NCBI GenBank assembly: GCA_964422625.1
Contig: CAYRBN010000003.1
Coordinates: 1-34,997 of the forward strand
Direction: 5' to 3'
Length of the DNA: 34,997 nt
Source of the DNA: an uncultured bacterium
GTDB lineage: Bacteria > Hydrothermota > UBA3073
Below the pieces are notes generated by a model. It was not told the DNA's origin. It did not search any database and saw only the letters and a list, made by a program, of their open reading frames with translations. Of this stretch, positions 109 through 34,997 are shown piece after piece. The translations under genes and the position numbers were made by a program. The number at the start of each line of letters is the position of its first letter. Positions within the stretch are counted from its first letter, which is position 1.

Positions 109-217
109 GTAAAGCTACGCTACTACTATGGTATAGATATCCAAATCTAATGTAGTAGCGGATATTTATATCCGCCCCAATGTAGTAGCGGATCTTTAGA
201 TCCGCCTCAAAAAGGAA
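109..217 (+). mobile_element. Family-B MITE-like repeat, copy B1. This is a variant with a duplicated 28-nt hairpin module and a degenerate right end.
   Basis: GTAAAGCTACGCTACTAC...AATGTAGTAGCGGATATTTATATCCGCC / AATGTAGTAGCGGATCTTTAGATCCGCC matches the internal part of B2-B5. Confidence 0.7.
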
Positions 218-6282: not shown

Positions 6283-6330
6283 GCGAAACATCTTGCCTCA
6301 CTGTGGAGCAAGATGCTTCACCTGTTTCTT

Positions 6331-6403
6331 CTAATATAATAAATTTGCAATTTGCATTTTGCAATTTGCATTTTGCAATGGAGCGAAGCGACAAGGGGGT
6401 GTT
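6331..6403 (+). promoter_or_regulatory. C cassette copy C1: (WTTTGCA)x5 heptamer array, then ATGGAGCGAAGCGACAAGGGGGTGTT immediately before the start codon
   Basis: The same module precedes pmbA (22412-22480) and tldD (24051-24125). AAGGGGG supplies the Shine-Dalgarno sequence. Confidence 0.7.
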
Positions 6404-7462
6404 ATGCGTAAAACTATCTTAATACTACTGCTCGCCCTTGTGGGGTGTGCAGAGGTCCCAAGGGATGTGGTTGTTATCCTTCCTCTATCCGGAAAGCTAG
6501 GGGGATATGGAGAAGATTGTCGTAGGGGAATAGAGATTGCACATTCTATGGCAGAGAAACCCCTTCCTCTGGTGTTTCTCGACAATAAAGACGATATAGA
6601 AACCACTATATCCATAATGAGAGAACTTCCCAAAACTACACTTGCAATAATAGGACCTATGACCTCTGCCACTGCCTTGGCCGCAGCAAACATTGCACAG
6701 ATGCTCGGAATTCCAATATTTCTCCCGTCCGCTACACATACTATGGTGACAGATGTGCCAGAATACGCCTTCCGTCTCTGTTTCAGCAATGCTGAACAGG
6801 CAGCCTCACTTGCAAAATTTCTTCATCAGGAGCTTGGAAAAAGAAGGGCCGCTCTTTTAATTGAGGCTGAGAGTCTGTACAGTAGCGACCTGGCTATCAG
6901 TTTCCTGTATGAATTTAAGAGACTTGGGGGAGAGATAGTAGATAATATCCACTATGAGGCTGGCGAGACAGACTTCCGAGAAAAGTTAGAAAGACTGATT
7001 AGAGACCCCCCTGATGTTATATTCATACCGGGCTACTATAGAGATGTAACGAAGATAATAATGGAAGCAAGAAAGATGGGTATAAAAATACCATTTGCAG
7101 GGGGAGACGGTTGGGATTCAGATAAGCTGTTAACTATTCCAGAGGACCTCCGTGGCGAAAACTACTTTACTACACACTTCTCTCCACAAAGGGATGTGCC
7201 GTTTGTAAAACGTTTTGTGGAAGAATATGAGAAGAGACATTACACACCCCCATCTGCTTTTTCTGCACTTGGTTTTGATGCATATAACCTCCTGATGGCA
7301 GTTTCTCAAGATGGAAGGAGAGGGATCGTAGATGGTATGAAGGGATTGAAAGGGTTTATGGGGGTAACAGGGATGATATACGAGCGTGGCGAGGCAGAAA
7401 AATCTCCTATATTGATCAAGTTCTCAGAAGATGGATTTGAATATCGTGGAATTATAAATTAA
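6404..7462 (+). CDS. Periplasmic-binding-protein (LivJ / Peripla_BP_6-like) lipoprotein; orphan, with no permease genes adjacent
   Basis: Start chosen at MRKTILILLLALVGC (lipobox L-V-G-C). The upstream 15 codons of the ORF-track call lie in the C cassette. The body resembles branched-chain amino-acid type binding proteins. Confidence 0.65.
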   Translation: MRKTILILLLALVGCAEVPRDVVVILPLSGKLGGYGEDCRRGIEIAHSMAEKPLPLVFLDNKDDIETTISIMRELPKTTLAIIGPMTSATALAAANIAQMLGIPIFLPSATHTMVTDVPEYAFRLCFSNAEQAASLAKFLHQELGKRRAALLIEAESLYSSDLAISFLYEFKRLGGEIVDNIHYEAGETDFREKLERLIRDPPDVIFIPGYYRDVTKIIMEARKMGIKIPFAGGDGWDSDKLLTIPEDLRGENYFTTHFSPQRDVPFVKRFVEEYEKRHYTPPSAFSALGFDAYNLLMAVSQDGRRGIVDGMKGLKGFMGVTGMIYERGEAEKSPILIKFSEDGFEYRGIIN

Positions 7463-7647
7463 TCCAAATTATGCGTTAAAAAACCACGAGATTACACAAG
7501 ATTATCACAAGACAAGTCAGTAAAGAATTTGCAACAATCAGATCAAGATATGTTCTTCACCTAAAAGGTGAAAAGTCATATTCTTGAAGATTCTTATACA
7601 ATCTGTGAAAATCTGTGTGATCTGTGGTTAATGCATATTCTGGGATT
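7461..7647 (+). mobile_element. Family-D MITE-like element, complete copy D1 (about 187 bp)
   Basis: Terminal inverted repeats: AATCCAAATTATGCGTTAAAAAACCACGAG versus the reverse complement of the right end, AATCCCAGAATATGCATTAACCACAGAT. The right 137 nt matches 34861-34997 inverted, with 4 mismatches. Confidence 0.75.
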
Positions 7648-7653
7648 AATATT

Positions 7654-7730
7654 AGAGGAGAAGGGGAGAAGGATGGAGAAGGGGAGAAAATAAAAAACTC
7701 TCCTTTTCCCCCAATTCTCCCTTTCCCCTT
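7654..7730 (+). repeat. Polypurine block of about 44 nt followed directly by a polypyrimidine block of about 33 nt (imperfect inverted repeat)
   Basis: agaggagaaggggagaaggatggagaaggggagaaaataaaaaa / ctctccttttcccccaattctccctttcccctt, in the lysS leader. Confidence 0.6.
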
Positions 7731-7750
7731 GAAAAAAAGGAGAAGAATTG

Positions 7751-11995: not shown

Positions 11996-12372
11996 CCTGT
12001 GGAGCATCGTCGCTTCGCTTTATGGCAAAAATAAAATTGCAAAGTGCAGATTTATTATGTTAACGCATTTGAGTGCAGTAGAGGCTGTGCAAAAAGTCAG
12101 TTTACCCTGTTAAATAAAGTCGCCCTATAGTAACGCTCTGGTACTTGGGTTAAGTTATGTGAATGATGGCAAAACTGGTCTGCGGACAGGGATAAACCCT
12201 GTCCCTACAATGTAGGGACAACCCTTGTGGTTGTCCGCAATTGTTTTTGCACAACATCAGTAGCTTGCTACTATTTACATTACCAAGTAATGCACTCCAA
12301 GTCGCTTTGCTCCATTGCAAAATGCAAAATTAAAGACCAACTAACAAACTAACCAACTAACACCTGACAATA
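11996..12372 (-). repeat. C cassette copy C4: decayed, no gene served, interrupted by A2
   Basis: It aligns module by module with 22412-22622 (GCGAAGCGAC, heptamers, TTATTATGTTAAC, Y-structure, second GTCGCTTYGCTCCATTG, CAAACTAACC tail). Confidence 0.7.
12082..12257 (+). mobile_element. Family-A MITE-like element, copy A2 (176 bp), flanked by a CAGTAG direct repeat
   Basis: CAGTAG (12076-12081) | AGGCTGTGCAAAAAGTC...TTGTTTTTGCACAACAT | CAGTAG (12258-12263). The homologous uninterrupted site is GGAGTGCAGTAGCTTGCTAC at 22491-22510. Confidence 0.85.
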
Positions 12373-12483: not shown

Positions 12484-12639
12484 TTATAAGAACAAAAACA
12501 CAAGGTATCCGCCAACAATAAAAACAGTTAGCATAGCTATAACATCCCATCCCAGTTTCAAAAAAGATTTCTGAGACTTATAGATTAGACCTACGATAAC
12601 TATAGCATTCAGAATTATTGCTAACATTAAAGTAAGTAG
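12484..12639 (-). pseudogene. C-terminal remnant of the CaCA antiporter pseudogene, separated from the rest by MITE B2
   Basis: My translation is LLTLMLAIILNAIVIVGLIYKSQKSFLKLGWDVIAMLTVFIVGGYLVFLFL*. It is in frame with 12780-13106 once B2 and one TAAGTAG copy are removed. Confidence 0.6.
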
Positions 12640-12790
12640 TGTCCGATGAATAATTCGTTTTTTTGCGTAGCTAAAGCTACGCTACTACACGGGATGGATA
12701 TCCAAAGCTAATGTAGTAGCGGATCTTTAGATCCGCCCCAAAAGGGAATATCGGTATTGATTGTGGTTTTGGCAATTTTTCACCGGTAAC
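12640..12790 (+). mobile_element. Family-B MITE-like element, copy B2 (151 bp), flanked by a TAAGTAG direct repeat
   Basis: TAAGTAG (12633-12639) | TGTCCGATGAATAATTCG...TTTTTCACCGGTAAC | TAAGTAG (12791-12797). Terminal inverted repeat CCGGTGAA. Confidence 0.85.
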
Positions 12791-13106
12791 TAAGTAGATG
12801 ATTAGGCGATATACTGGACAAGAATTCCTCCTTTCTACAAAGTATATCGCAAAAGGGAATGATCATCATATCAAGAAAATTACTCCCCAGAATATTACCT
12901 ACAGCCATAGATACTGTAAATTTAAGTGAAGCAAGCGAGACTACTAATTCCGGTAGAGAGGTAACAATAACGAAAAAGGTTGTGCCTACAAAACTTTCAC
13001 TCCAGATTCCCAGTCTCCCTATTTCCCCACCAATCTGAGCAAGCCATATCCCCAAAAATATAATAGCCACGAAGTAGATACAAAACTTAAAGAGGGCTAT
13101 CCTCAA
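12780..13106 (-). pseudogene. CaCA (Na+/Ca2+ exchanger, YrbG-like) fragment 3, alpha-2 repeat
   Basis: VTSLPELVVSLASL...GNILGSNFLD. The terminal residues SYR plus the stop are encoded by the B2 terminus. Confidence 0.7.
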
Positions 13107-14033: not shown

Positions 14034-14354
14034 TCATTTAATATCACTTAGATCAGGAAGGTTAAAGGCTATTACGATAAGAGCATCACCTTCTTCAAAT
14101 CTCTCGAATTTTTTGTCCTTTTGTCCCGTCCGTTTTTCCTTGGGATTTAGGATAATTCGGTCTTCTCTACGGACTCCAATTAGAATTGCAGGGTTTACTG
14201 GGTCTCTATTCCTGTAGAACATTTCTGCTGTTTCCTCGAATGTTTTCCCTATAATTGCCTTAGGGAATTTGTCCTCGGTGATAATGTAGATTCCGTTTGT
14301 ATCTTCGGAATATGTAAGTAGTTCCCGGTGAAAAAATGCTAAAACCACAATCAA
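14034..14354 (-). pseudogene. C-terminal RCK (TrkA-C like) fragment of the composite channel gene
   Basis: The first 11 codons (MIVVLAFFHRE) lie inside MITE B3. The remainder, LLTYSEDTNGIYIITEDKF..., continues the RCK domain. Confidence 0.6.
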
Positions 14355-14471
14355 TAGCGATATTCCTTTTTGGGGCGGATCTAAAGATCCGCTACTACAT
14401 TAGCTTTGGATATCCATCCCGTGTAGTAGCGTAGCTTTAGCTACGCAAAAAACGAATTATTCACCGGTAAC
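14322..14471 (-). mobile_element. Family-B MITE-like element, copy B3 (150 bp), flanked by a TAAGTAG direct repeat
   Basis: TAAGTAG (14315-14321) | TTCCCGGTGAAAAAATGC...CGAATTATTCACCGGTAAC | TAAGTAG (14472-14478). The interior is the reverse complement of B2. Confidence 0.85.
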
Positions 14472-14979
14472 TAAGTAGATTGTTATAAACTGTGGAAAGT
14501 TTCGCATGTAGTGCACACTGGGCAAGGAGACCCAATCCATAATCAGTCGCACATATTACCTCACCTACTCCAGCATCTCTTAGATGTTCTATTTTCCGAT
14601 GATTGATAGCTTCGGTCACGATATGAGGCCTCGGTCCTGTATTACACAGTTTTATGATCGCTAAAGCAATTAAAGCGGAGTTCGCATCCGGATCTGGACT
14701 TTCTTCATTTGCAAGTATAACCACGCTCTTTGCCAGATTAACACGCGATGCTTTTAACACATAGTGGAGGATTGGATCACTTCTTATGAAGAACACCCTT
14801 TCGTATGCTTTGTTCTTTCTTAATTCGGCTTCATTGATCTCTCTGTCTGTAACTATAACTATCTCTGTCTTTGGTTCGGCTTGAGGTTTGTGGAGTTCTT
14901 TTACAATCCCATCTCCCCTCTCATTCCAGTTACAAATTGCGATATGTCCCTTAGTCCCTTCTGGTATCTTTACCTCCTT
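14461..14979 (-). pseudogene. RCK N-terminal (CASTOR/POLLUX- or TrkA-N-like) fragment of the composite channel gene
   Basis: The open frame continues upstream of the listed Met: KEVKIPEGTKGHIAICNWNERGDGIVKELH.... It is in frame with 14980-15489 but separated by TAA at 14980-14982. It ends in the B3-encoded SYR and stop. Confidence 0.65.
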
Positions 14980-15633
14980 TTAAAAAAAATGTGGTGCAAT
15001 CAATCCCACTACTGTGCCAAGACAGACAAGACTTGCAATAAATACAAAAATGGAACCAACCCATCCTGCGGGATTTATTGGTATTCTCTCTTCAAAACCA
15101 CTGAAGACATAAACCAAACCCGATTTTAAGGTCTCCCAGGGAGTTATAAAATATTCGTTAACATTACGTTCCCCAACATACATTATGAACATTCCTACGA
15201 AGAAGAAACTAAGTAATGTCACAGCAAGTTTTCCATAGATGCTTTTGCACCATATAACCTTCCAAATGGGGCGCCTATATTTAATAAGGAGACCCGCTGC
15301 AGAAACAGATAGAATAATGAATAACCATGTTGGTAGATCTACATGTCTTCTGTAATGTTTATCAGCAGATGGATGGAGTTTAATGCTCATACCTCTTCGT
15401 GCATTCCTTGGCTTTATATACGATCCTGCCAGGTGGCTTTCTCTCAAAATTGCTGATTTCTTAAAAATCGCCCTTGTAATTTCTTCCACTATGGTAGGAT
15501 GTAAATCTTTTCTGACGACCAGCAGTGCTCTTACACCAATAGTAGAAATATTCCTATATCGTTCAAGGTAATCAACACGAGAAATTCTTGCAAATATAAA
15601 ATAGGATAGTTTTTTCGTAGTTCTCTTACCATC
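14980..15633 (-). pseudogene. Fragment holding the C-terminal part of the TAXI binding domain, a transmembrane anchor, and a 2-TM pore module
   Basis: My translation upstream of the listed start gives ISTIGVRALLVVRKDLHPTIVEEITRAIFKK...KLHPSADKHYRR (TAXI C-terminus). Three hydrophobic helices follow, with a P-loop-like PWETLKSGLVYVFSGFEE. Confidence 0.55.
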
Positions 15634-16292
15634 TCATTAGGCATAGAAACAAAATTTATCTTCCTTGCTTCTTCTAAATAGCGAATAGCGGGGGTCGGGT
15701 AACCAGCTGTTATAAAGGCGGCATGAATCGTGCCAGCAAGCAGAGAATCTTTTGCATCGCCAAAAGAAAGGTATAATGTATCTTTGAGAGCAATATCAAA
15801 GGCACCTAAAATAGTGAATGCATTGGATAGGGTTCCGCTATTTTTTGGTCCCACAGAGACTTTTCTGTCTCTCAGACCGTTAATAGAGGTAATTCCTAAC
15901 TCTTTTCTTGTCACAATTTGAACAACTTCTGTGTAAAGGGATGCAATTCCTCTCAATACCGACGAGTCTCTCAATGCAATATCATTCTGGATAAGGGCAA
16001 TATCAGCCTTTCCTTCTTTTATCAACCTCGCATTTGCAATTGAGCCTGCTGTAGTATCAACAATAACTTCTATACGACCGTGAGATTCTTCCTCTATTGC
16101 TTTTTTGATCCCCTGCCCCACACATAAGCTTATGTGCAGGGTGAACGAGCTCTGTGATTTCCCCTGTTCTTTTATACTTTTTTTGACAGTACCCTCAATA
16201 AGCGAATTTAAAGAGATGAACAAGGTAAGCCAGGTAAATGAGAAGCAAGAAAGCTCCTTCCCAGCGAACCAGACGGGAACCGCTACTGGCAA
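15531..16292 (-). pseudogene. TAXI-family (TRAP-type) solute-binding domain, N-terminal two-thirds
   Basis: VDTTAGSIANARLIKEGKADIALIQNDIA is typical of TAXI receptors. The frame is lost near 15595-15610 and resumes in the 14980-15633 frame. The N-terminus overlaps the CaCA 3' end by about 98 nt. Confidence 0.65.
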
Positions 16293-17193
16293 AGATGAGC
16301 ATGACCAGAGTAATGAATAGCATCACTGGCATGGTTATCCTGAGAGTCTGGCTATCTATGTCCAGGGGGTTAATGAGAGAAGATGTCCCCAGTACCCAGA
16401 GGATGTTTACGATATTAGAACCGATTATAGTCCCGGCCGCTATATCTTCCATCTTCTTGGACACCGCCACCAGGGCGGTAAATAGCTCAGGAAGAGAGGT
16501 TCCCACCGCTACCATAGAGAGACCGATAACTACTTCGGGAACTCCTAAGAACTTCGCGATACTTATTCCGCTGGGAATAACCCCATAGGTCGCCGAGGCG
16601 ATTACCCCAACGGCCCCGATTAAGAACTTGATAGCATCTTTCTTCATACTCGGAGGAGGGTCTCTGCTGTTAATCGCCTTTCTCCTTATCATCAGTTCCT
16701 TTCTAACGATATAGATGGAAGACGCGATAAGCAGAATGCTAAGGAGAAGTCCATTTCCAAAACCCAGATTTCCCCCATCAAGAATCCCCCCTGGTCCTCT
16801 TTGGAAATCGAGCATTAAGAGAAAAAGAAGTATGGCTATTCCGATGAGGAATTTCAATTCCAGTTTTATCAACCTGGGTTGGAAATGAATGGACCTGACC
16901 ATAGCCGCCAGACCCAATATCAAACCGATATTAGCGATGCAGGAGCCCAGGGCATTCCCCACAGCCATTCCCCCGATGCTCTCTTTTAAGGGCAATCGTG
17001 ACATATATGCGGAAATAGTGGATACGGCAAATTCAGGCGCTGAAGTAGCTAAACTGACTATGGTCAGTCCAATAATCATCCGGGGAATTTTCAAAGACTG
17101 AGCCAATCCGGAGGCGCCGCTGGTGAACAGGTCAGCGCTCTTGACGATGACACCAATGGCGATGGCAAAGATGATAAAGTCTCTGATAGGCAT
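16195..17193 (-). CDS. CaCA family sodium/calcium (K+-dependent type) antiporter, intact
   Basis: 332 aa and polytopic, with both alpha repeats: GLTIVSLATSAPEFAVS...GNALGS and GLSMVAVGTSLPELFTAL...GSNIVN. Confidence 0.85.
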   Translation of the reverse strand: MPIRDFIIFAIAIGVIVKSADLFTSGASGLAQSLKIPRMIIGLTIVSLATSAPEFAVSTISAYMSRLPLKESIGGMAVGNALGSCIANIGLILGLAAMVRSIHFQPRLIKLELKFLIGIAILLFLLMLDFQRGPGGILDGGNLGFGNGLLLSILLIASSIYIVRKELMIRRKAINSRDPPPSMKKDAIKFLIGAVGVIASATYGVIPSGISIAKFLGVPEVVIGLSMVAVGTSLPELFTALVAVSKKMEDIAAGTIIGSNIVNILWVLGTSSLINPLDIDSQTLRITMPVMLFITLVMLIFASSGSRLVRWEGAFLLLIYLAYLVHLFKFAY

Positions 17194-20531: not shown

Positions 20532-20768
20532 ATGGAGATTCTAACTATTCTGTTAGTCCTTATCTTCCAGGATGTAAGGGGTTATGATACCCCAAACGAT
20601 GCAGGAGGTTCAATAACGGTTGAGTGGGAGAGAGAGGATGCTCCTCTTGTTGTGGGCTATGAGATATGGAGAAGCCAGTTTCCTGATACTGGCTTCACTA
20701 TGGCTGGCTCTGTTGTTAATGGTATTTGGACATCCTTATTTATGAAAAATGCTTCAGTAAATTTCTAA
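20532..20768 (+). pseudogene. 5' remnant of a surface-protein gene (signal-anchor plus the start of an FN3/Ig-like domain)
   Basis: 78 aa containing YDTPNDAGGSITVEWERED...GYEIWRS. The ORF stops at the TAATTAG site where B4 sits, and there is no room for the rest of the domain before pmbA. Confidence 0.35.
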
Positions 20769-20772
20769 TTAG

Positions 20773-21035
20773 TATCCGGTGAATAACTCGTTTTTTGCGT
20801 AGATAAAGAGGTCGTGCAAAAAATCAATTTACGAAGTCTACGGACAGGGATAAACCCTGTCCCTACAATGTAGGGACAACCCTTGTGGTTATCCGCAAGG
20901 TTATCTTCACAGCCTGTAACGCTACGCTACTACACGGGATAGATATCCAAATCTAATGTAGTAGCGGATCTTTAGACCCGCCCCAAAAAGGAATATCGGT
21001 ATTGATTGTAATTTTGGCAATTTTTCACCGGTAAC
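20773..21035 (+). mobile_element. Family-B element copy B4 (263 bp) carrying nested A3, flanked by a TAATTAG direct repeat
   Basis: TAATTAG (20766-20772) | TATCCGGTGAATAACTCG...TTTTTCACCGGTAAC | TAATTAG (21036-21042). A solo B-type terminus, TTTCCAGTGAAAAAATGG, follows at 21043-21060. Confidence 0.85.
20809..20916 (+). mobile_element. Family-A element copy A3 (108 bp), nested in hairpin 1 of B4
   Basis: TAAAG | AGGTCGTGCAAAAAATC...CTTCACAGCCTG | TAACG. Confidence 0.8.
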
Positions 21036-21082
21036 TAATTAGTTTCCAGTGAAAAAATGGTTAGGACGCAGATAGACATACT

Positions 21083-22411
21083 TCAATATTCTGTCTTACC
21101 TGTAAAGCCAAAATCTTCAATCAGAAGAGAGGGAGCCAAACACCTGAACCGCTCTCCAATCATACTTCTTTCTTGTGAGATCTCTCTCACTTTTTTGAAG
21201 GCTTCAAGGATATTTATAGTAAATCTGAGATTCTTAAGCCCCCGGTCAATCTTCCCATCCTTTATCAGAAAAGTTCCATCACGGGTCATCCCTGTTACCT
21301 GTGTCTGATCAGGGTCTACAATCCTCGTATACCAGAACCTCGTTATCAAAATACCCTCAGATATTGAAGAGAGCATCTCTGATTTACTTGCATCTCCGCC
21401 TTCTATCACAAGATTTAGCGGAAATGGACCACTTTCTTGACAGAGCAGGGCATGACCTGTTGATTGTTTATCTTCCTTGTTTGCATAGAAGGAATCATAG
21501 ACCACCCCTTTTGCTACACCACTCTCTATCAATGGAACTCTCTTCTTAGGGACGCCTTCAAAGTCAAAGACTAACCCTGACATTTGCGGGTGATGGACAT
21601 CATCAAAGATTGTGATATTACTTCCAGTTATAAGATTGCCAATCTTACCCGCCATGAAACTTCTGCCTTCCTGAAATGTCCTAGCGCCAAAGCCTATCCA
21701 GGCTAAAAACATAAGCAGTTCACCAACAGCCTCTTCCTCAAGTAGGACAGTATAAGGTTCTAACTTTGCCTCCTGGGGGTTCTTACCCAACATTGCTTTT
21801 TCTGATGCAATCTCGGCAAGTTCCTCAAAATCTATTGAATAGAAATCATCTGTCCTTATCCCGGCATATCCTGAGGAACTTCCAGATGAGGCAAATATAC
21901 CAATCTTGCAATCACTCTCTTCTCCAAAATTATGGACTCCAAGTGAGTTTGCAATCCCTAACGAACTTCTGCTGGTATTGATAGCGCCTGCTGAGCCAAG
22001 TCCATATCTTTTGCAAACCTTAACAATCTTCTCTACAGCATCTGCCCTCTCTTCTGGGCTGACCTCTCTAATCTCTTTGGGTATCTTTTTTCCCTTTGAA
22101 GGAGAAGGGGATGGAAGAGATACAAATTCATCATCTCTCATCTGGTGAGTTGAGATCTGATAAGCGGTATTCATCAGACCTTTGATATCTGTTTTGTCCT
22201 TTATATGAGCTGATATAGCACCTATCCGCTTATCCTTGATCACCCTTGCCCAGAAACTGTCTTTTTCGCTCTGCAGGTTTTGATGAATGATTGAATTGGC
22301 AAATCTTGTCGTCGCACTCTCCTCTGACCAGATTCCAGCCTCAATCTGATCCGCAGGCACTGACTTGCACGCAAGTCCCAAAATCTCTTCTGCTTTTGAT
22401 TTTGATAACAC
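21083..22411 (-). CDS. pmbA: PmbA/TldE metalloprotease-family protein
   Basis: 442 aa in the TldD/PmbA fold family, lacking the HExxxH motif. GTG start 5 nt after AAGGAGG. Paired with tldD upstream. Confidence 0.8.
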   Translation of the reverse strand: MLSKSKAEEILGLACKSVPADQIEAGIWSEESATTRFANSIIHQNLQSEKDSFWARVIKDKRIGAISAHIKDKTDIKGLMNTAYQISTHQMRDDEFVSLPSPSPSKGKKIPKEIREVSPEERADAVEKIVKVCKRYGLGSAGAINTSRSSLGIANSLGVHNFGEESDCKIGIFASSGSSSGYAGIRTDDFYSIDFEELAEIASEKAMLGKNPQEAKLEPYTVLLEEEAVGELLMFLAWIGFGARTFQEGRSFMAGKIGNLITGSNITIFDDVHHPQMSGLVFDFEGVPKKRVPLIESGVAKGVVYDSFYANKEDKQSTGHALLCQESGPFPLNLVIEGGDASKSEMLSSISEGILITRFWYTRIVDPDQTQVTGMTRDGTFLIKDGKIDRGLKNLRFTINILEAFKKVREISQERSMIGERFRCLAPSLLIEDFGFTGKTEY

Positions 22412-22622
22412 ATTACCTCCTTGTCGCTTCGCTCCATTGTAAAATGAAAATTGTAAATTGCAAAATGCAAATTTATTATGTTAACACATTGGAGTGCAGT
22501 AGCTTGCTACTGCATGCATTACCAAGGTAATGCACTCCAAGTCGCTTCGATCCATTGTCCAATGAAAAATCAAAGACCACAGACTGCAGACCAAAACAAA
22601 CTAACAAACTAACCACCTGACA
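22412..22622 (-). promoter_or_regulatory. C cassette copy C2: the full-length, uninterrupted tldD-pmbA intercistronic module
   Basis: Its parts are a tail of CAAACTAAC-type repeats, two copies of TTTTCATTnnACAATGGAKCGAAGCGAC, a 48-nt Y-shaped palindrome at 22491-22538, a heptamer array at 22438-22472, and the Shine-Dalgarno AAGGAGG. Confidence 0.7.
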
Positions 22623-24050
22623 TCACCTCCCTATCTTCACATTTCTAAATCTGACAGGTGATGTGCCATGACCTACATAGGCTGTCTGCATCGGTTCACC
22701 TTTGCCACAATTGGGTATACCCCAGACATTCCACTCCTTACAGATTGCATCGCAGTTCCTCCATACCTGATATGAGATCCCAGAGTAAGAGGGCCTTTTT
22801 ATCATAGCACCTAATTTTCCGTTTTTGATCTCCCAGCCTATCTGAGCACCTATATGGAAGTTTAACCGCTTATCATCTATGGATGGGGATGTAGGCGCTT
22901 CAATATAGATTCCGCTCTCTGTATCAGCAATCAGATCGGAGAGACTCCAATCTCCAGGTTTAAGATTTATATTTGTCATTCGTATAAGTGGGATACTTGC
23001 CCATGAATCTGCCCTCATTGTCCCGTTACTCTTTTCACCTATTCTGTGGGCTGTCTCTCTTGAGGTTATGTATCCCTTGAATATACCATCTTCCACTAAG
23101 ATTGAGCATTGTGCAGGTATACCTTCGTCATCGTATCCAAAGGAGCCAAGTCCATCCGGAATTGTGGCATCGGACGTAAGTGTTACTATTGGAGAGGCAA
23201 ACTGAAACTTGCCACGCTTATCCAGTGTTAGATGAGAAGTGCCTGCCAAACTCTCCTCTGTCCCCAATACCCTATCAAGTTCAGTTGGATGACCAACAGT
23301 TTCATGGATATGTAATGCCATAACCGAACCATCACATATTATAGTAGTTACCTCAGATGGACACTCTTTTGCAGAAAGTAGGGCATAAGCCTCTTCTGCA
23401 ACTCGTTCTCCATTCTCTTCAAGTTTTAACCCTTTTACAAATTCATATCCTGAGTTCCTGTAATCTCCCATACCGCCAGGAAAGGAACGATCACCTGTCT
23501 TGCCATCTTTTACTGCAGTAGCATGGATGTAAGCTCCTGACTGGGTTATCTCTTGCTCAATAGATGTACCTTCAGAGTTTTTGAACAGCTGGTTCTTTCT
23601 GACAAAAAGAAGGCTTGACTGGGAGATTTTTATTCCCCTTACCTTTCGCATAATCTTATCACAGGATAGGAGCAGATCGATCTTATCTTCATAGGAGACG
23701 GAGAAGGGATCAATTGCTATATCAGTCTTATATTGGGCAACAAGTTTCGGTGCGGATGCCAGTTCTATCTCTTTCTGTTTAAGAGCGCTTGATGACCGGG
23801 CGATCCGACAGGCCAGGGCTGCTGTTTTTTCTATATCCTCACGCGTAAGCCTACAGGTTCCTGCAAACCCCCATGACCCGTCTGTTATGACTCTCACCCC
23901 AATTCCTCTGCTCTCATCGCGTTTAAGAACCTGAACCCGTCCATTTTTCACCGTGATATCCTCTTCTATCCGCTCAAGGAATCTGGCATCAGCATAGCTT
24001 GCTCCTCTAAGTTTTGCGGTATCTATTGCAAGATCAAGTAGTTCTCTCAT
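22623..24050 (-). CDS. tldD: TldD metalloprotease
   Basis: 475 aa from the ATG at 24050 (MRELLDLAIDTAKLRGASYADARF), with AAGGGGG upstream. Contains HETVGH (HExxxH). The 15 extra N-terminal codons in the ORF track lie in the C cassette. Confidence 0.88.
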   Translation of the reverse strand: MRELLDLAIDTAKLRGASYADARFLERIEEDITVKNGRVQVLKRDESRGIGVRVITDGSWGFAGTCRLTREDIEKTAALACRIARSSSALKQKEIELASAPKLVAQYKTDIAIDPFSVSYEDKIDLLLSCDKIMRKVRGIKISQSSLLFVRKNQLFKNSEGTSIEQEITQSGAYIHATAVKDGKTGDRSFPGGMGDYRNSGYEFVKGLKLEENGERVAEEAYALLSAKECPSEVTTIICDGSVMALHIHETVGHPTELDRVLGTEESLAGTSHLTLDKRGKFQFASPIVTLTSDATIPDGLGSFGYDDEGIPAQCSILVEDGIFKGYITSRETAHRIGEKSNGTMRADSWASIPLIRMTNINLKPGDWSLSDLIADTESGIYIEAPTSPSIDDKRLNFHIGAQIGWEIKNGKLGAMIKRPSYSGISYQVWRNCDAICKEWNVWGIPNCGKGEPMQTAYVGHGTSPVRFRNVKIGR

Positions 24051-24261
24051 AATACCCCCTTGTCGCTTCGCTCCATTGAAAAATGAAAAGTGCAAATTGC
24101 AAAATGCAAATTTATTATGTTAACAGATTGGAGGACTGCGGACAGGGATAAACCCTGTCCCTACAATGTCCGCAGGATTGTTTTTGCACGGCCTCAGTAG
24201 ATTGCTACTGCCTCGCAACCAGGAGGTTGCTCCTACCATCTACGCTCTACGCTCAACGCTT
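24051..24261 (-). promoter_or_regulatory. C cassette copy C3, interrupted by A4; includes (TACGCTC) heptamers at 24241-24261
   Basis: It has the same 5' module and heptamers (24077-24111) as C1 and C2. The Y-structure is retained with a different third hairpin, GCAACCaggaGGTTGC. Confidence 0.65.
24135..24194 (+). mobile_element. Family-A element copy A4, an internally and terminally deleted 60-bp derivative
   Basis: ACTGCGGACAGGGATAAACCCTGTCCCTACAATGTCCGCAGGATTGTTTTTGCACGGCCT, followed by CAGTAG (24195-24200). It occupies the same site within C as A2. Confidence 0.7.
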
Positions 24262-24340
24262 TCAATATCGGATATGGGTCAACATAATGGAGATCAAAAT
24301 TGCATATCTTCTCATCAAGTCCAGGTGATAGTGCCATCAG

Positions 24341-25594
24341 CTAATCCCATCCCTTCCGTCGGTGGTTCAACAGGGCGAGTGTCCTGTTCATCTCGTTGTA
24401 CACGATCATCAGACCCTCGTCCACACCCATCCCGGGTTTGGCCAGGATCTGGTCCGGCTGCACAGCAAGAGCGAGCTGCGTACACACCTGCGCTGATCGA
24501 TCTGTCTCGTTGCTTGTCCCCCCTTGGTAGGCACCCACGCCCTTCGCTTTGCAGTAGAGTATCGCGTCTATCGTGTTGGTGATGCTCCCCAGGTCCGGTG
24601 TCTTGATCTGGATCACATCGGCTGCCTGCGCATCGGCGAACTCACGGATATCTTCGAGCGTGTTGCACCACTCGTCAGCGACGATCTTCACCGTGCCACC
24701 CAGCCTGTGTATTCGCCTTCTCAGAAGGGAGAGCCGTTCTATCTGCGCCGATTTGCCTCCAGCGTCGAGCGGTCCTTCAATCAGCAGTTGGTGAGGTGCA
24801 GCCATTTGCTCTAGTTCTAACAGGTAGTCGGCCATCCGCGGGATATCGTCGGAAAAGGCGAGTGCGATCGTGCCGTAGACATCAAGGTGGAAGGACGGAC
24901 GATACCGATCGCCACCGAGCAAGGCACACCGCTCCTTCAACCAGCCGATATACTCGCACAGCAGCTCTCCACGCTGTCCGAGCTTATCTCGCACATTGTT
25001 GATCAACCCGTGGGGAAGGATCGCCGCGTGCTTCAATATTGCCTTGTCCGCGCCTTTATACCGATCATCTCCGCTTTGTGAGAAGATCGGCACCGGTTTC
25101 ACATCGTACGGAAGCCCGTACTCTTCCAGGATTACCTCGGTCATCGTCATCGCTCTTGCTTTGGCTACAGCATCTAGGATCGCTTGCGTCAGCCCGTACT
25201 CGATCGCGGTGTGGACCCGTTTTCCATCGCTTAATCGCACCGATTCACAGTCTGCGGCCAGATCTCTGAACGAATTGAGAGTGCGTCCTTCAAAGAGAGG
25301 GATCACCTCCCGCTCGATGATCGGAATATAATCACGAGCCAGGAACAGAGGGTCACGCCCTCCGGTTCCAGAATACTGGACCGCAGCACAGTCGCCGTAT
25401 GCAACCTGCCCGTCGCACAAGATGAGGATAATAGATATCGACTCCCCCTGTTGACGTATGGAGGTGAACCCGGCGGTCAGAGGAGCGCCGCGATAGGTGA
25501 ACCCATCTGCCTTTGCATCGGCTTTGATCGCCCGCTGGTCGTCGAAATAGAACCCGGTCAATCCGGAAGATAACAGAATCTTAGAAATCTTCAT
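24341..25594 (-). CDS. mal: Methylaspartate ammonia-lyase (3-methylaspartase)
   Basis: 418 aa from the ATG at 25594. MKISKILLSSGLTGFYFDDQRAIK... closely follows the clostridial MAL N-terminus. The start overlaps the glmE end by 14 nt. The CDS is GC-rich. Confidence 0.9.
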   Translation of the reverse strand: MKISKILLSSGLTGFYFDDQRAIKADAKADGFTYRGAPLTAGFTSIRQQGESISIILILCDGQVAYGDCAAVQYSGTGGRDPLFLARDYIPIIEREVIPLFEGRTLNSFRDLAADCESVRLSDGKRVHTAIEYGLTQAILDAVAKARAMTMTEVILEEYGLPYDVKPVPIFSQSGDDRYKGADKAILKHAAILPHGLINNVRDKLGQRGELLCEYIGWLKERCALLGGDRYRPSFHLDVYGTIALAFSDDIPRMADYLLELEQMAAPHQLLIEGPLDAGGKSAQIERLSLLRRRIHRLGGTVKIVADEWCNTLEDIREFADAQAADVIQIKTPDLGSITNTIDAILYCKAKGVGAYQGGTSNETDRSAQVCTQLALAVQPDQILAKPGMGVDEGLMIVYNEMNRTLALLNHRRKGWD

Positions 25595-27071
25595 CGTGCT
25601 TGGGGTCGGTCTTAGGACAGCCGACGAGATGCCCTTTCCCGATCGCGTATACATCATCAATGACCATCTGGAAGTTAGGTTCGCGCCCTTCGCTCTTCCC
25701 CCGTTCGGCGAGCTTCTCCTGATGGAACTCCTTCACTTCCCGGTTGAACGGCAGGTCGCCTGTGGAGAGGAATCTAACCGCCCCTTCTTTGTCGCGCGCC
25801 GGCAGCATTGCCCCATGGGTATGCCGACTCGGAGCAAACGGCACATCAATCACCCCGGCTTCGAACCCCCTGACCGATCCCAAGGCCCAGTCTCCATCGC
25901 CTAGCTCGAGTATCTTATCGATGATCTGCGCAACCTCGGTCTTGATCATCCTCTTCTCAATGTCCAGCTTCTTGGTCTGTTCGATCGACTGTTCTTTGAG
26001 CATCTCCACGATCTGCCTGGTCGCCCGCAACCCTTGCACGTTCGCCTCGCGGGTCGGAACACCGACCGCTTCATGGGGGGTCTTGACGATGATCTTGTTT
26101 GCCTTAGCCATGGCCGCCACGACCGCGCCCCAGGATATCACAGCGAATGCCCTCGCTTCATCCTGAGGAAAACCACCCATCCATTGGTGGAAGACCGTGG
26201 TTACGGTAACATCAGAGAAACCCTCCTGAGCAAGATAATTATCGGCCAGCTCGCGCAACGTTTGAATCGCTGCCACATCCTGCAAAAAATGGCCGTTCTG
26301 CCCACAACCGAAGGTGATGTTTTTCACTCCTTGCTTCGCTGCAAGTACCCCTTCTATGATTCCCACCACATGCGAGATAGAAGGGGGGATCAAAGTGCCG
26401 GTCAAAGTCCCGTACAGTTCACGGTTGATATGTACCCCGTGCTCGTGGTAGTAGCCGACCAGTCGATCAACGTACTGCCAGGAAGAGATCGTCGATTCGA
26501 GGGAGACATCCTTAGCATAAGGGATGTTGTACCCGATTCCTCCTCCTTCGAAGTCGGTGAACCCACCGGCAAGGGTGATCTCGGCGAGGAGCCTGGCGTC
26601 GGGAGTACCGTGGCGGACCTGCAATGGCCGCTTGAGCGCATCCACCAGTCGCCGGCAAGAGGCGACACCGTAGTTGACAGCAGGGAATCCGTTGAGCATC
26701 GACCGCCCCATCTGCTTACTCTCCTTGATCCCATTGTCCGCGTCCTCGTACCGATTCTGACGGGTATAACTGTCTATTGTCGTCGGGAGGATATCGGCCT
26801 CCCCCTCATCCTGCAGGAAGCGAAGCAGTTTGATCTGCTCATCGATGAGAGTTACACCTGCACGTGGTTGGACGAGAGTGCGACCTTCTTTAGCTGCCCG
26901 GTCCAGGACTGTTACGACGTTCTTCTTCCCGGGGAGATCTTTATGGTACGCAAATGCGTCATCTATATCTACATCTTTGCCGGTCGGCCAGAAGGTGAGG
27001 ACCTTCTTCCGCTCCTCTAAGAATACCTCTTCGGGCAACCGCTGATCACTGAACCCTTTTTCATTCATCAT
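25581..27071 (-). CDS. glmE: Glutamate mutase (methylaspartate mutase) epsilon / E subunit
   Basis: 496 aa with WPTGKDVDIDDA...LVQPRAGVTLIDEQIKLLRFLQDEGEADILPTTIDSYTRQNRYEDA. Confidence 0.92.
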   Translation of the reverse strand: MMNEKGFSDQRLPEEVFLEERKKVLTFWPTGKDVDIDDAFAYHKDLPGKKNVVTVLDRAAKEGRTLVQPRAGVTLIDEQIKLLRFLQDEGEADILPTTIDSYTRQNRYEDADNGIKESKQMGRSMLNGFPAVNYGVASCRRLVDALKRPLQVRHGTPDARLLAEITLAGGFTDFEGGGIGYNIPYAKDVSLESTISSWQYVDRLVGYYHEHGVHINRELYGTLTGTLIPPSISHVVGIIEGVLAAKQGVKNITFGCGQNGHFLQDVAAIQTLRELADNYLAQEGFSDVTVTTVFHQWMGGFPQDEARAFAVISWGAVVAAMAKANKIIVKTPHEAVGVPTREANVQGLRATRQIVEMLKEQSIEQTKKLDIEKRMIKTEVAQIIDKILELGDGDWALGSVRGFEAGVIDVPFAPSRHTHGAMLPARDKEGAVRFLSTGDLPFNREVKEFHQEKLAERGKSEGREPNFQMVIDDVYAIGKGHLVGCPKTDPKHDEDF

Positions 27072-28492
27072 CTCTCCTCCTGGTGAACTTCTACCAGATA
27101 TCGGGTTAAGAGTTTGAACGCTGTCCTGGGCATCTGCTTTGCCAGCAGCCCGGCTGAGGCTATGATGTAATCCTTATCTATGTAAAATATTCCTTCTGTC
27201 GGTGTGAGGACATCTACTTGATCCGCTCGCCGTACAGCCCCTGCAAGCACACAACGCGGTGTTTGATGGTGGACAAGAACCCCTCCGGTGCCGATGATTC
27301 TTCGCACCATAGTCAGGTCTTTGCCACGCTGGATGGTTATCTTCCCGTGGGGAGTGAAGAGGTAGTTTAACTTACCGGCATGGCGTGTTACAGCCATCTC
27401 CACCGCTGTGCGAGCAATGATACTCTCTAACACTATCTCTCGCTCGGAAGTGCATATCCGGTCGCTCTCCTGGCTGATCATCTTTACGAAACGCTCCAAC
27501 TCAGTGATAGTAAATCGCTTCTCCTTGTCCAATTGAACCCCGATACGCAGCAAATCAGATTCCTCTATCGCCGCCATTAGGCTGGCCGCACTGTAGCGCA
27601 TTCCCATGTCGCCTTCCACTGTCCGCTTGTCCCAGGGTTCGATCAGCCCCTTGCGAACCACCCCCGGAAGGGTAGGGTCCCCACCAGCCATGGAGTGGAC
27701 ATCGGTCGTTGCTCCGCCTATATCTACGACGATCAGCTCACCCCAACCTTTGTTTTGACCATCCCCTCGAGCGAGCAACCGGGCAGCATCCATCACAGCG
27801 GACGGCGTGGGCATGACGACTCCATCGATCAAATCCTGAATTCTATCAAGCCCTTTGGCGACGACGATCTTCTCCAGGAAGAGTTTGCGGATCGCCTCGC
27901 GCGCCGGCTCGATGTTCAAAGTTTCCAGCTGAGGCATTACATTGTCGGCAACCCGGACATCCTTGCCAGCCCGTCGCAGGATATCAGCCACCTCGTCTTG
28001 CGCAACCTTGTTCCCGGCAACAATGATCGGTGCAGTTAAATCAGATCGGGCAAGCAGACGGGCGTTGTGCAGAATTGTATTACTGTTGCCGCCGTCGATC
28101 CCACCGGCGAGGAGAATGATATCGGCCTCTACTCGGTCGATGGCGGTGATTTCGCTCTTGCTCAGATTGAAGGAGAAAGTCTGTAGGAGTTTAGCCCCCG
28201 CTCCAAGCACTGCCAACTTTGCGGCTTCAGCGGTCAGACTTGGGATCAACCCGATCGCCACCATGCGCAACCCACCTGCGGCACTGCTGCAGGCCAGTTT
28301 GAGATCAGTCCGGGAGAAAATCGGGCCGATCTGCTCCTCCACCTGCGCAACCGCACGGTGGAGTCCATCACTGACATCACGGCCGATCGTTGTCGGCGCC
28401 TTACCGACCGCGAGGATAGTCGCCTGCTCGCAATCGACGGCGACCACTTTGGTAAAAGTGCTCCCAATATCACATAGAATCGCAACTGCCAT
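27068..28492 (-). CDS. glmL: Glutamate mutase accessory / reactivase protein GlmL (MutL)
   Basis: 474 aa in the ASKHA-like fold (CDIGSTFTKV, VVDIGGATTDVHS). It sits between glmS and glmE as in clostridial operons and overlaps the glmE start (ATGATGA). Confidence 0.85.
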   Translation of the reverse strand: MAVAILCDIGSTFTKVVAVDCEQATILAVGKAPTTIGRDVSDGLHRAVAQVEEQIGPIFSRTDLKLACSSAAGGLRMVAIGLIPSLTAEAAKLAVLGAGAKLLQTFSFNLSKSEITAIDRVEADIILLAGGIDGGNSNTILHNARLLARSDLTAPIIVAGNKVAQDEVADILRRAGKDVRVADNVMPQLETLNIEPAREAIRKLFLEKIVVAKGLDRIQDLIDGVVMPTPSAVMDAARLLARGDGQNKGWGELIVVDIGGATTDVHSMAGGDPTLPGVVRKGLIEPWDKRTVEGDMGMRYSAASLMAAIEESDLLRIGVQLDKEKRFTITELERFVKMISQESDRICTSEREIVLESIIARTAVEMAVTRHAGKLNYLFTPHGKITIQRGKDLTMVRRIIGTGGVLVHHQTPRCVLAGAVRRADQVDVLTPTEGIFYIDKDYIIASAGLLAKQMPRTAFKLLTRYLVEVHQEER

Positions 28493-28498
28493 TGGACC

Positions 28499-28933
28499 TC
28501 AGACCTCGGACTTCGGACTTCGGACTTCCAAATCTGCCTTCAGATCGCGAATCGGACCATCGGGCAACGTCCCCTGGGGGTAGACCCGGTCGAAACCCAT
28601 CCTCAGAAAACGCTCTTTCACCTCGTCCCAGTCCTGCTTACCTATCACCAGATTGCCGCCGATGTAGATTATGATATCATTCAGCCCAGCTTCTATGCAT
28701 CGTTCCCGGAACCCCTGACAGTCAAGCTCGCCATGGCCGTAGAGGGAGGAAACAAGAATCGCATCAGCATCCGCCTCTATCGCCGCCTCAATAAAATCTT
28801 GTTGTGAAGAAAGCACTCCGATGTTAACTACATGAAAGCCTGCTTCGGTGAATGCATAGTCGAGGATCTTGTTCCCCACTGCATGGACATCGGCTCCGAT
28901 AACACCTAATATCACGGTCTTTCGATCCTTCAT
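28499..28933 (-). CDS. glmS: Glutamate mutase sigma / S subunit (cobalamin-binding)
   Basis: 144 aa with the B12-binding DxHxxG motif ([12 protein letters not shown]). The last 8 codons (EVRSPKSEV) are encoded by the (AAGTCCG)x3 array. Confidence 0.9.
28507..28527 (-). repeat. (AAGTCCG)x3 heptamer array forming the 3' end of glmS
   Basis: The plus strand reads CGGACTTCGGACTTCGGACTT. The same unit occurs at 11958-11987. Confidence 0.85.
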
Positions 28934-28949
28934 TCTATGTCAACGGTCC

Positions 28950-29086
28950 GGTGCACGTACAAAAACAACCTTGCAGACAACTAGTAGAGTATGTAACCAC
29001 AAGGGTTGCCCCTACATTGTAGGGACAGGGTTTATCCCTGTCCGCAGACCAGTTTTACCATCATAAACTGACTTTTTGCACAGCCT
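28950..29086 (-). mobile_element. Family-A element copy A5, in the glmS / sucD-like spacer
   Basis: CGTACAAAAACAACC...CCACAAGGGTTGCCCCTACATTGTAGGGACAGGGTTTATCCCTGTCCGCAGACC...GACTTTTTGCACAGCCT. The left boundary is uncertain by a few nt. Confidence 0.75.
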
Positions 29087-29113
29087 CAAGTGACTGCATC
29101 TCTTTTCAATATA

Positions 29114-31248: not shown

Positions 31249-31287
31249 ATCTGATACTTCCTCCTAACTTGCGATAAGATTAATTAG

Positions 31288-31437
31288 TGTCCGGTGAATA
31301 ATTCGTTTTTTGCGTAGCTAAAGCTACGCTACTACACGGGATGGATATCCAAAGCTAATGTAGTAGCGGATCTTTAGATCCGCCCCAAAAAGGAATATCC
31401 ATATTGATTGTGGTTTTAGCATTTTTCCAGCGGTAAC
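31288..31437 (+). mobile_element. Family-B element copy B5 (150 bp), in the citE-like / sucC-like spacer
   Basis: TAATTAG (31281-31287) | TGTCCGGTGAATAATTCG...TTTTTCCAGCGGTAAC | TAATTAC (31438-31444). The right repeat contains the citE-like stop codon. Confidence 0.85.
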
Positions 31438-31440
31438 TAA

Positions 31441-32310
31441 TTACTCCGCCCTTTGTATATCATTGGCAAGGGCGAGAAGCCTCTCTGCATTGCGGGCGAC
31501 AGGATAGTCAATGAATTTACCGTTGTCAAGCATTATTGCCGCATGCCCGGCGGATTCAGCTTCCCTGAACGCAGCCACGACACGCTCGGCATAGGCGATC
31601 TCCTCTTGCGATGGAGAAAAGACCTCATTTACCGGCTCTATCTGTGCAGGATGGATGACCAGTTTCCCTTGAAAGCCAAGCTTGCGCCCTACGCCCGCAT
31701 CAGCGAGCAGACCGGAAGGGTTCTTGATCTCAGGATAGACAGTATCAATCGGCGGTTCCAACTCAGCGGCGGCAGAGGCGTTGACAAGGTGTGAACGAGC
31801 ATAGAGGATCTCGACCCCGCCTTTCTCTAACTGAACATTGATATCGGTGGTATAGTCTATTGCCCCAAAGCAAAGTCGGCGTACACGCGCGACGCTCGTA
31901 GCGATATCGTAGGCGTTGTGAACACCGGCGGCATTCTCCACCAGCGGGATGAGGTCTATTGAACCGAGAGGAAGTGACCGCTCCTTCTCCAGATGTGAGA
32001 GGTACCAATCGACCTTGATCAGATCGACTGCTTTCTCCGTCTTAGCAAGGACGATCCCATCCAGGTGAGATGAGACGACAGCAGCTAGATCACCAATAGT
32101 AAGCCCAGTGGAAAGGGCATTAACTCGCACATAGCAGGGACGATCGCGAGAGGTCATCAACACCTCTGCAATTGACTTGCGCGTCGCTGCCTTCTCAGCG
32201 ACCGGTACCGAATCCTCCAAATCGAGGATGACGACATCGGCGTTGAGCTGCAACGCTTTCTCCACACGCCGGGACACATTTCCCGGGGCAAACAGCAAGG
32301 AACGAAACAT
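31441..32310 (-). CDS. CitE / HpcH-HpaI family acyl-CoA lyase (malyl-, beta-methylmalyl- or citramalyl-CoA lyase-like)
   Basis: 289 aa from the ATG at 32310 (MFRSLLFAPGN...). It has VILDLEDSV and the overall citrate-lyase beta pattern. The substrate cannot be read from the sequence. Confidence 0.8.
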   Translation of the reverse strand: MFRSLLFAPGNVSRRVEKALQLNADVVILDLEDSVPVAEKAATRKSIAEVLMTSRDRPCYVRVNALSTGLTIGDLAAVVSSHLDGIVLAKTEKAVDLIKVDWYLSHLEKERSLPLGSIDLIPLVENAAGVHNAYDIATSVARVRRLCFGAIDYTTDINVQLEKGGVEILYARSHLVNASAAAELEPPIDTVYPEIKNPSGLLADAGVGRKLGFQGKLVIHPAQIEPVNEVFSPSQEEIAYAERVVAAFREAESAGHAAIMLDNGKFIDYPVARNAERLLALANDIQRAE

Positions 32311-32466
32311 GATCAATCTCAAAATAGCAATGTTTATCGCCTACTACAACTCCACCAATCGGCGGTATAAAATATTGCGCAGCAAAGCAGAAGAGTGGTA
32401 CATGTTTAGCGTTCATCTGTCAAGCAAGCTCAACCACAGGAGACGATCGTTAGTTTGATTATCTCC

Positions 32467-34822: not shown

Positions 34823-34860
34823 ATCCACTCCTGGCGGAACTGAAATTCCACTTTTACTTA

Positions 34861-34997
34861 ATCCCAGATTATGCATTAACCACAGATTACACAGATTTTC
34901 ACAGATTGCATAAGAATCTTCAAGAATATGACTTTTCACCTTTTAGGTGAAGAACATATCTCGATCTGATTGTTGCAAATTCTTTACTGACTTGTCT
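34861..34997 (-). mobile_element. Family-D element copy D4 (cut by the window end)
   Basis: It is the reverse complement of 7511-7647, with 4 mismatches in 137 nt. Confidence 0.8.

Follow-up and report, generated by a model that had tools for sequence, protein, structure and literature searches.

MITEs are short non-coding elements that carry TIRs, are flanked by a duplication of the target and occur in multiple copies; those reviewed from bacteria include, for example, Correia/NEMIS of Neisseria, RUP of Streptococcus pneumoniae, Nezha of the Nostocales, Chunjie of Geobacter and QMITE1/2 of Coxiella (PMC10969869). The repeat described here, designated family B, resembles the bacterial MITEs in that it is shorter than 500 bp, AT-rich and non-coding, with TIRs and direct repeats of a duplicated target. 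It further resembles them in being multi-copy, in containing stable stem-loops, in its mostly intergenic or gene-end and sometimes intragenic location, and in nesting. It has no sequence similarity to any described family: Rfam, PLSDB plasmids and IMG/VR gave no match, and neither did searching the full-text literature for the termini. Correia and RUP duplicate TA, in contrast to family B for which a 6-bp duplication of TAAKTA is the preferred reading. Family B is presented as a previously undescribed family of an ordinary element class.

Two further systems invite comparison. IS481 of Bordetella generates a 6-bp duplication of the near-palindromic NCTAGN, and the ends of IS481-family elements begin with TGT. 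Family B resembles this family in the fixed 6-bp duplication, in the near-palindromic, TA-containing hexamer and in the use of both orientations; unlike that family, its ends begin with GT and its target word is different. The analogy is one of mechanism only. The Rickettsia palindromic elements (RPEs) are, like family B, small palindromic repeats found inside protein-coding genes. An RPE enters its host gene in frame and becomes part of the translated protein, whereas family B has stops in all six reading frames and truncates the host ORF.

The window, by which is meant the whole stretch of 34,997 nt that was analyzed, contains five copies of family B as determined by repeat finding and by BLAST with the B5 copy, which bears out the number given in the first-pass annotation; four of the five are complete. 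The uninterrupted complete copies are 151–152 bp in length, and pairwise identity among the complete copies is 90.7–95.4%. The copies and the features associated with them are as follows, with the duplications given in the 6-bp register argued for below.

110..217, + strand: B1, partial copy, starting in the helix-1 loop after a nested family-A element (~5-113); its right part takes in the tandemly duplicated helix-3 unit (30 nt) and the right terminus is lost; many same-species contigs stop here
12484..13106, - strand: CaCA gene fragments around B2, fused in frame by excision
12633-12796: B2 including its duplications
12633..12638: left target-site duplication of B2, TAAGTA
12639..12790, + strand: B2 element, 152 bp, within the CaCA (Na_Ca_ex) pseudogene
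12639-12650 and 12779-12790: TIRs of B2, GTGTCCGATGAA and TTCACCGGTAAC
12665..12736, + strand: three-hairpin core of B2, a sequence reading, with folding done on the equivalent B5 core
12665-12682: H1 of B2, GCGTAGC-TAAA-GCTACGC
12683-12718: H2 of B2, TACTACA-22 nt including GGATATCC-TGTAGTA
12719-12736: H3 of B2, GCGGATC-TTTA-GATCCGC
12791..12796: right target-site duplication of B2, TAAGTA, with a host G next, at 12797
14034..14796, - strand: gene fragments of the K+-channel RCK/Castor_Poll_mid gene around B3, fused in frame by excision
14315-14477: B3 including its duplications, core on the minus strand
14315..14320: first target-site duplication of B3, TAAGTA in the + strand reading
14321..14471, - strand: B3 element, 151 bp, in the RCK domain of the K+-channel pseudogene
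14472..14477: second target-site duplication of B3, TAAGTA
20766-21041: B4 including its duplications
20766..20771: left duplication of B4, TAATTA, the TAA of which is the stop codon of ORF 20532..20768 (+)
20772..21035, + strand: B4 element, 264 bp, including a nested 108-nt family-A element (20809-20916) in the helix-1 loop
21036..21041: right duplication of B4, TAATTA
21042..21060, + strand: B-like solo terminus remnant, GTTTCCAGTGAAAAAATGG, directly after the right TAATTA of B4
31281-31443: B5 including its duplications
31281..31286: left duplication of B5, TAATTA
31287..31437, + strand: B5 element, 151 bp, intergenic, right TIR degenerate (TCCAGCGGTAAC)
31438..31443: right duplication of B5, TAATTA, holding the stop codon of ORF 31441..32322 (-), with C next

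The inverted termini proposed in the first-pass annotation (CCGGTGAA) were present in all four complete copies. They were found to belong to a TIR of 12 bp that reaches the extreme ends of the element, 5'-GTnnCCGGTGAA...TTCACCGGnAAC-3', at both ends of each complete copy. Allowing at most one mismatch, the window contains eight matches to GTNNCCGGTGAA, where 1.2 would be expected; all but one are family-B termini, and the eighth adjoins the right repeat of B4.

Each complete copy had been described as flanked by a duplicated 7-mer. The letters were read correctly, whereas the length of the duplication did not hold and 6 bp (TAAKTA) is preferred. The four complete copies were written in core orientation and the two registers compared. 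In the 6-bp register the left end reads GT-nn-CCGGTGAA and the right end TTCACCGG-nA-AC in all four, the latter in degenerate form in B5, and all four repeat pairs are perfect (TAAGTA, TACTTA, TAATTA and TAATTA). In the 7-bp register B2, B4 and B5 begin with T(G/A)TCC and finish with GGTAAC, whereas B3 begins with GTTACC and finishes with GGGAA. The 7-bp model was rejected, since it displaces the ends of B3 by one base on both sides and leaves the repeats of B5 mismatched (TAATTAG/TAATTAC). Since the same ends in every copy, in either orientation, and four perfect duplications are obtained in the 6-bp register only, the duplication is most likely 6 bp and the element most likely ends GT...AC, a choice that, like the target logo, is based on only four complete copies. 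Counting against this choice, the seventh base also matches in three of the four copies. It is apparently the terminal G (or C) of the element on one side and a host G on the other; the host G is found at the seventh position in three of the four sites and may reflect target preference. The fourth base of the repeat is concordant on both sides of all four copies (G/G, G/G, T/T and T/T), indicating that the repeats are duplicated target and not element sequence. The solo terminus beside B4 is probably what is left of a copy that had entered this site earlier, and duplicated targets would then be used more than once; its sequence GTTTCCAGTGAA, directly after the right TAATTA, is also compatible with the 6-bp register.

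The targets used by the four complete copies are TAAGTA (twice) and TAATTA (twice), forms of a near-palindromic hexamer. Four insertions into two hexamers that differ at one base uphold the narrow target preference claimed earlier. Hexamers of the TAAKTA type occur 26 times in the window, where 30 are expected, and 8 of the 26 are the flanks of the four copies; the majority of such sites are thus unoccupied. Both orientations of the element relative to the target word were found, the core of B3 being opposite to that of B2 at TAAGTA. Flank type groups B2 with B3 and B4 with B5, whereas two informative internal substitutions group B2 with B4 and B3 with B5. This disagreement indicates that the target is newly chosen at each insertion rather than carried with the element, and it argues against homology-dependent recombination. 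The host flanks beside the repeats have no similarity to the arms of the element.

These results bear directly on an origin by site-specific recombination, according to which a circular form, TTCACCGGnnAC-TAAKTA-GTnnCCGGTGAA, with a 12-6-12 arrangement like that of lox/dif, would recombine with a chromosomal TAAKTA through a tyrosine recombinase or a DEDD enzyme of the IS110/IS1111 type and leave the 6-bp overlap on both sides. The symmetric 12-6-12 architecture obtained by abutting the ends and the very narrow target, with four insertions in two hexamers one base apart, would both be accommodated. Host flanks unlike the element arms, however, provide no binding sites of the attB type. The overlap should also follow the lineage of the element, which conflicts with the discordance of flank type and internal subfamily, and the non-palindromic TAAGTA was entered in both orientations. 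In IS110/IS1111 elements true TIRs at the ends are lacking, the junctions repeat just a 2-nt core and insertion is orientation-specific, in contrast to the terminal 12-bp TIR, 6-bp repeat and two orientations of family B, which speak against a derivative of these bridge/seek-RNA, DEDD elements. The TIRs, the true duplication, the two orientations and the absence of arm-like host flanks rule against both the bridge-RNA/IS110 and the tyrosine-recombinase versions, and recombination of this kind is considered very unlikely.

The reading frames of the two interrupted genes were examined by excision in silico. Removal of the element together with one repeat restores both genes, in agreement with the first-pass annotation, yielding an RCK protein with ...VYNNLLTYSEDTNG... 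and a CaCA protein with ...SPNHLLTLMLAII... Neither the CTA CTT A codon phase common to both genes nor the frame argument that had been raised against a TA duplication separates the models, since any in-register duplication of 1–7 bp yields the identical excision product. As had also been proposed, the terminus adds S-Y-R and a stop; both interrupted ORFs finish LLSYR*, five codons into the element. The Pfam models Na_Ca_ex and Slo-like_RCK/Castor_Poll_mid span the restored junctions. Alignment of the restored RCK protein with 11 K+-channel homologues showed no gap at the junction, with L168, L169 and Y171 invariant, and the restored CaCA fragment was likewise gap-free at the junction against 8 CaCA homologues. 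Some of the channel homologues are ~58% identical and labelled candidate division WOR-3. The closest channel relative (P0001) shares 81% amino acid identity and is encoded on a contig of a sister species (L041), which supplied an empty orthologous site. This contig is intact at the exact codon of the B3 insertion and reads ...GAT AAC TTG CTT ACA TAT TCC GAA..., where the window reads ...AAC AAT CTA CTT A[element]CTACTTA CAT ATT CC... The gap-free homologues and the intact sister-species gene indicate that the genes are not naturally split at the insertion points.

Both host genes carry further lesions. In the channel gene, the channel part is separated from the RCK part by an in-frame stop (14980-14982), and there is a frameshift upstream of the channel part, between it and an NMT1_3 (TAXI-like) part at 15531-16292. 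The CaCA gene has an additional frameshift and a stop and is in three pieces. Based on these lesions both are pseudogenes irrespective of the element. An intact CaCA paralogue is located at 16195-17193. The presence of a host stop codon inside the repeats of B4 and B5 was also confirmed, for the ORFs listed above.

Three contiguous helices had been described for the core and were found, as perfect 7-bp stems, at the same positions in B5 (31312-31329, 31330-31365 and 31366-31383). All three appeared in the minimum-energy and centroid folds of the B5 core on both strands, as RNA and as DNA, with z = -3.7 to -4.1 relative to dinucleotide shuffles. The core is pseudo-symmetric in that the reverse complement of H1 is a paralogue of H3, each unit having the form TGTAGTAG + GCGnnnC-TTTA-GnnnCGC, and the two are directed toward each other with GGATATCC in between. 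H1 and H3 differ in two stem pairs, yet each is a perfect hairpin. The duplicated third helix of B1 was also verified as a 30-nt tandem duplication in which GCGGATA-TTTA-TATCCGC stands beside GCGGATC-TTTA-GATCCGC. Among the four distinct variants of the hairpin unit, three stem pairs have both bases replaced (two of them distinguish H1 from H3, and the third is in the B1 duplicate) and one is broken (A·C in helix 3 of B4), and 8 of 500 shuffles equalled the observed double-sided changes. With regard to the claim of selection on the structure, the double-sided changes are no more than suggestive of a maintained palindrome and fall well short of a covariation test; support for selection is thin, with one change being disruptive. 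Since the stems are perfect DNA palindromes, they do not distinguish between an RNA structure, a DNA structure and a site for a dimeric protein. A scan of the window with Rfam 15, a check proposed in the first-pass annotation, returned no match at the gathering threshold, the best sub-threshold score being 22 bits against a cut-off of 44 bits and at chance level.

The fold could be taken to mean that the core is a functional RNA or DNA module under selection, such as an sRNA, an mRNA stabilizer or a set of protein-binding palindromes, for which mobility is secondary. A z score of about -4 and the three double-sided changes in four variants, the B1 duplicate included, that 8 of 500 shuffles equalled would agree with this explanation. 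It is at odds with the lack of an Rfam match, with hairpins that, being palindromic, fold equally on both strands and so carry no RNA strand signal, and with the state of the copies themselves: in B4 helix 3 contains the A·C pair and helix 1 is interrupted by 108 nt, B1 is truncated, and two copies lie within dead genes. Promoter-like and terminator-like sites were also absent from the element, and a terminator or promoter function was rejected on this basis. A module maintained primarily for such a function is accordingly judged highly improbable.

The same hairpins recall the REP/REPIN sequences mobilized by RAYT (Y1) proteins, GTAG-headed hairpin units that are scattered singly or in inverted pairs. 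As in a REPIN doublet, the family-B core consists of two inverted units, in each of which a short GC-rich hairpin comes after a head containing GTAG. The paralogy of H1 (as reverse complement) and H3, both preceded by TGTAGTAG and both perfect despite two differing pairs, and the folding of the core into three stable hairpins on either strand would fit a hairpin-driven, single-strand element of the REP/REPIN or IS200/IS605 (PATE) type. Unlike REPINs, which are without TIRs and target duplication, the family-B units occur only inside an element with TIRs and a TSD; no hairpin units were found outside the family-B copies within the 35 kb. Elements moved by Y1 transposases have no TSD and a fixed orientation 3' of the target, and those of the IS200/IS605 type have no TIRs either, whereas family B has clear TIRs, a true duplication in which the variable base covaries on both sides, and both orientations relative to the target word, with B3 inverted at the same word as B2. 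The Y1 reading, in either its REP or its IS605 form, was rejected on these grounds, and the chance that it applies is regarded as slight in the extreme.

A second structured repeat of ~108 nt, family A, is also present in the window and contains hairpins of GGACAGGG.../CTACAATGTAG/GGGACAACCC. Copies are located at 20809-20916 and 5-113, and also at 12141-12270, 24133-24207 and 28995-29064. In B4 and B1 family A is nested in the loop of helix 1 of family B, in opposite orientations. It is flanked by TAAAG/TAACG in B4 and abuts TAAAG in B1, and this pattern resembles what a 5-bp duplication and a favoured insertion site would give. A composite explanation can be framed from these features, in which family B is more than IS debris, being a TIR/TSD transposon that bears a functional, REPIN-like pair of GTAG-headed hairpins; these would serve as structure-specific sites bound by an as yet undescribed, hexamer-specific transposase of its own, or as a dedicated landing pad, with layered MITE-in-MITE targeting. 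The landing-pad option stems from the helix-1 loop having been hit twice by family A, independently and in opposite orientations. The composite explanation is considered unlikely.

The window is unusually rich in small repeats. A dispersed repeat with ...TTGTCGCTTCGCTCCATTG...AAATTGCAAAATGCAAATTTATTATGTTAAC... occurs at 6307-6406, 12009-12081, 12258-12339, 22401-22600 and 24048-24133 and often adjoins family-A copies. Another repeat family is represented by an inverted pair of 140 nt at 7510-7649 and 34858-34997, with 97% identity, such that the window ends inside one arm; several contigs of the same species end at 7517-7620, in this 140-nt repeat. Next to the aspartyl-tRNA synthetase gene, on its upstream side, positions 7650-7735 form a long imperfect hairpin in which a purine-rich run (GGAGAAGGGGAGAAGGATGGAGAAGGGGAGAAAA) precedes the complementary pyrimidine-rich run (CTCTCCTTTTCCCCCAATTCTCCCTTTCCCC). 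The G+C content is 52–56% at ~24000-32000, compared with 36–45% in the remaining window. The genes in this block encode methylaspartate ammonia-lyase, glutamate mutase (E chain, MutL and the B12-binding subunit) and a pair resembling succinyl/citryl-CoA synthetase. The block is bounded by repeats (24048-24209 and B5) and may be a horizontally acquired operon.

The distribution of family B was assessed in contigs of the same organism, which were collected by exact-protein look-ups and are all at least 99.2% identical to the window. The contigs originate from four ENA assemblies of BioSample SAMN16557391, from GCA_021129395.1, from JGI 3300032176 and from five Logan runs. The insertion was present in every contig spanning a B site, and these at least 99.2% identical contigs revealed neither new copies nor same-species empty sites beyond the ends of the window or among strains. 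The identical insertions in all samples give no sign of current activity and indicate that the copies are fixed. Many contigs, from at least 10 samples, terminate inside B1 or B5, and others terminate inside other repeats; breaks inside the copies point to a high-copy repeat, as expected in short-read assemblies.

Searches were also conducted in wider collections. Scans with the helix-3 pattern returned no match in species-representative genomes, two chance matches in JGI metagenomes and none in IMG/VR, collections that are blind to the organism of the window. The two JGI matches (L006 and L007) are 25-nt chance hits on unrelated contigs of high GC content. The metagenome scan also missed Ga0326351_1001570 (L029), a JGI contig of the same organism in which the search pattern is present, so that negative results from these collections carry no information on the organism of the window. 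In the species-representative genomes the best adenylosuccinate synthetase match is only ~45% identical, indicating that no close relative is among them. A 41-aa peptide encoded by the element, in an open frame entering from the right end, gave no candidates in the protein database. BLAST of the element yielded nothing against PLSDB plasmids and nothing against the fetched loci of relatives, and a full-text literature search for the termini or for insertion sequences targeting TAATTA retrieved only primers and unrelated papers; the accession numbers, searched likewise, gave no result.

Taken as a whole, the evidence identifies family B, with a probability of roughly 0.85, as a non-autonomous TIR transposon (MITE) of ~151 bp that would be moved in trans by a transposase encoded elsewhere. 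The assignment follows from the short, non-coding sequence, the 12-bp TIRs, the fixed-length duplication, the two orientations, the many copies and the precise restoration of genes. Four features by which a MITE is recognized were found, namely small size without coding capacity, TIRs, repeats derived from a duplicated target, and dispersed copies together with an empty site. The first-pass annotation was thus right in kind in proposing a mobile element of ~150 bp that encodes no protein, has inverted termini, carries a genuine target duplication and breaks two genes, although its description as the most system-like unexplained signal among the repeats is overstated, since TIRs, a TSD, multiple copies and the lack of coding capacity are those of a textbook MITE. 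No transposase is encoded within the window, in line with the earlier remark that no coding partner is in view. An autonomous element with family-B termini was likewise not found in the searchable DNA collections, which do not contain this organism, and no specific IS family was matched to the combination of a 6-bp duplication and GT...AC ends.

The following sequence of events is proposed for the MITE. A transposase encoded elsewhere in the genome would bind both GTnnCCGGTGAA termini and make cuts staggered by 6 bp at TAAKTA (TAATTA or TAAGTA, mostly with G next). The element would then be joined in either orientation, and repair of the gaps would give the 6-bp direct repeat. Insertion within a gene would truncate the product, the terminus reading ...S-Y-R-stop in one frame, and targets that contain TAA would lead to landing on or beside stop codons. 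From the sequence features we infer the action of the transposase in trans and chemistry of the DDE type, and the internal hairpins could, for example, be subterminal protein-binding palindromes left from the ends of the parent element.

Family B alone raises no new mechanistic question; interest would grow with an unusual partner enzyme or with genome-wide selection on the hairpin triplet. If the composite explanation were true, a targeting system of layered MITEs would be present in an uncultured, deeply branching lineage. As a MITE family, family B is an addition distinguished by its tidy core of three hairpins and by a hexamer target that is unusually narrow. The two host genes are seen to be pseudogenes interrupted by a transposon rather than naturally split genes, and family B accounts for several cases in which an ORF is split or a contig breaks off in the assemblies of this uncultured organism. 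A complete genome could tie family B to a transposase with 6-bp TAAKTA specificity, which may be worth characterizing.
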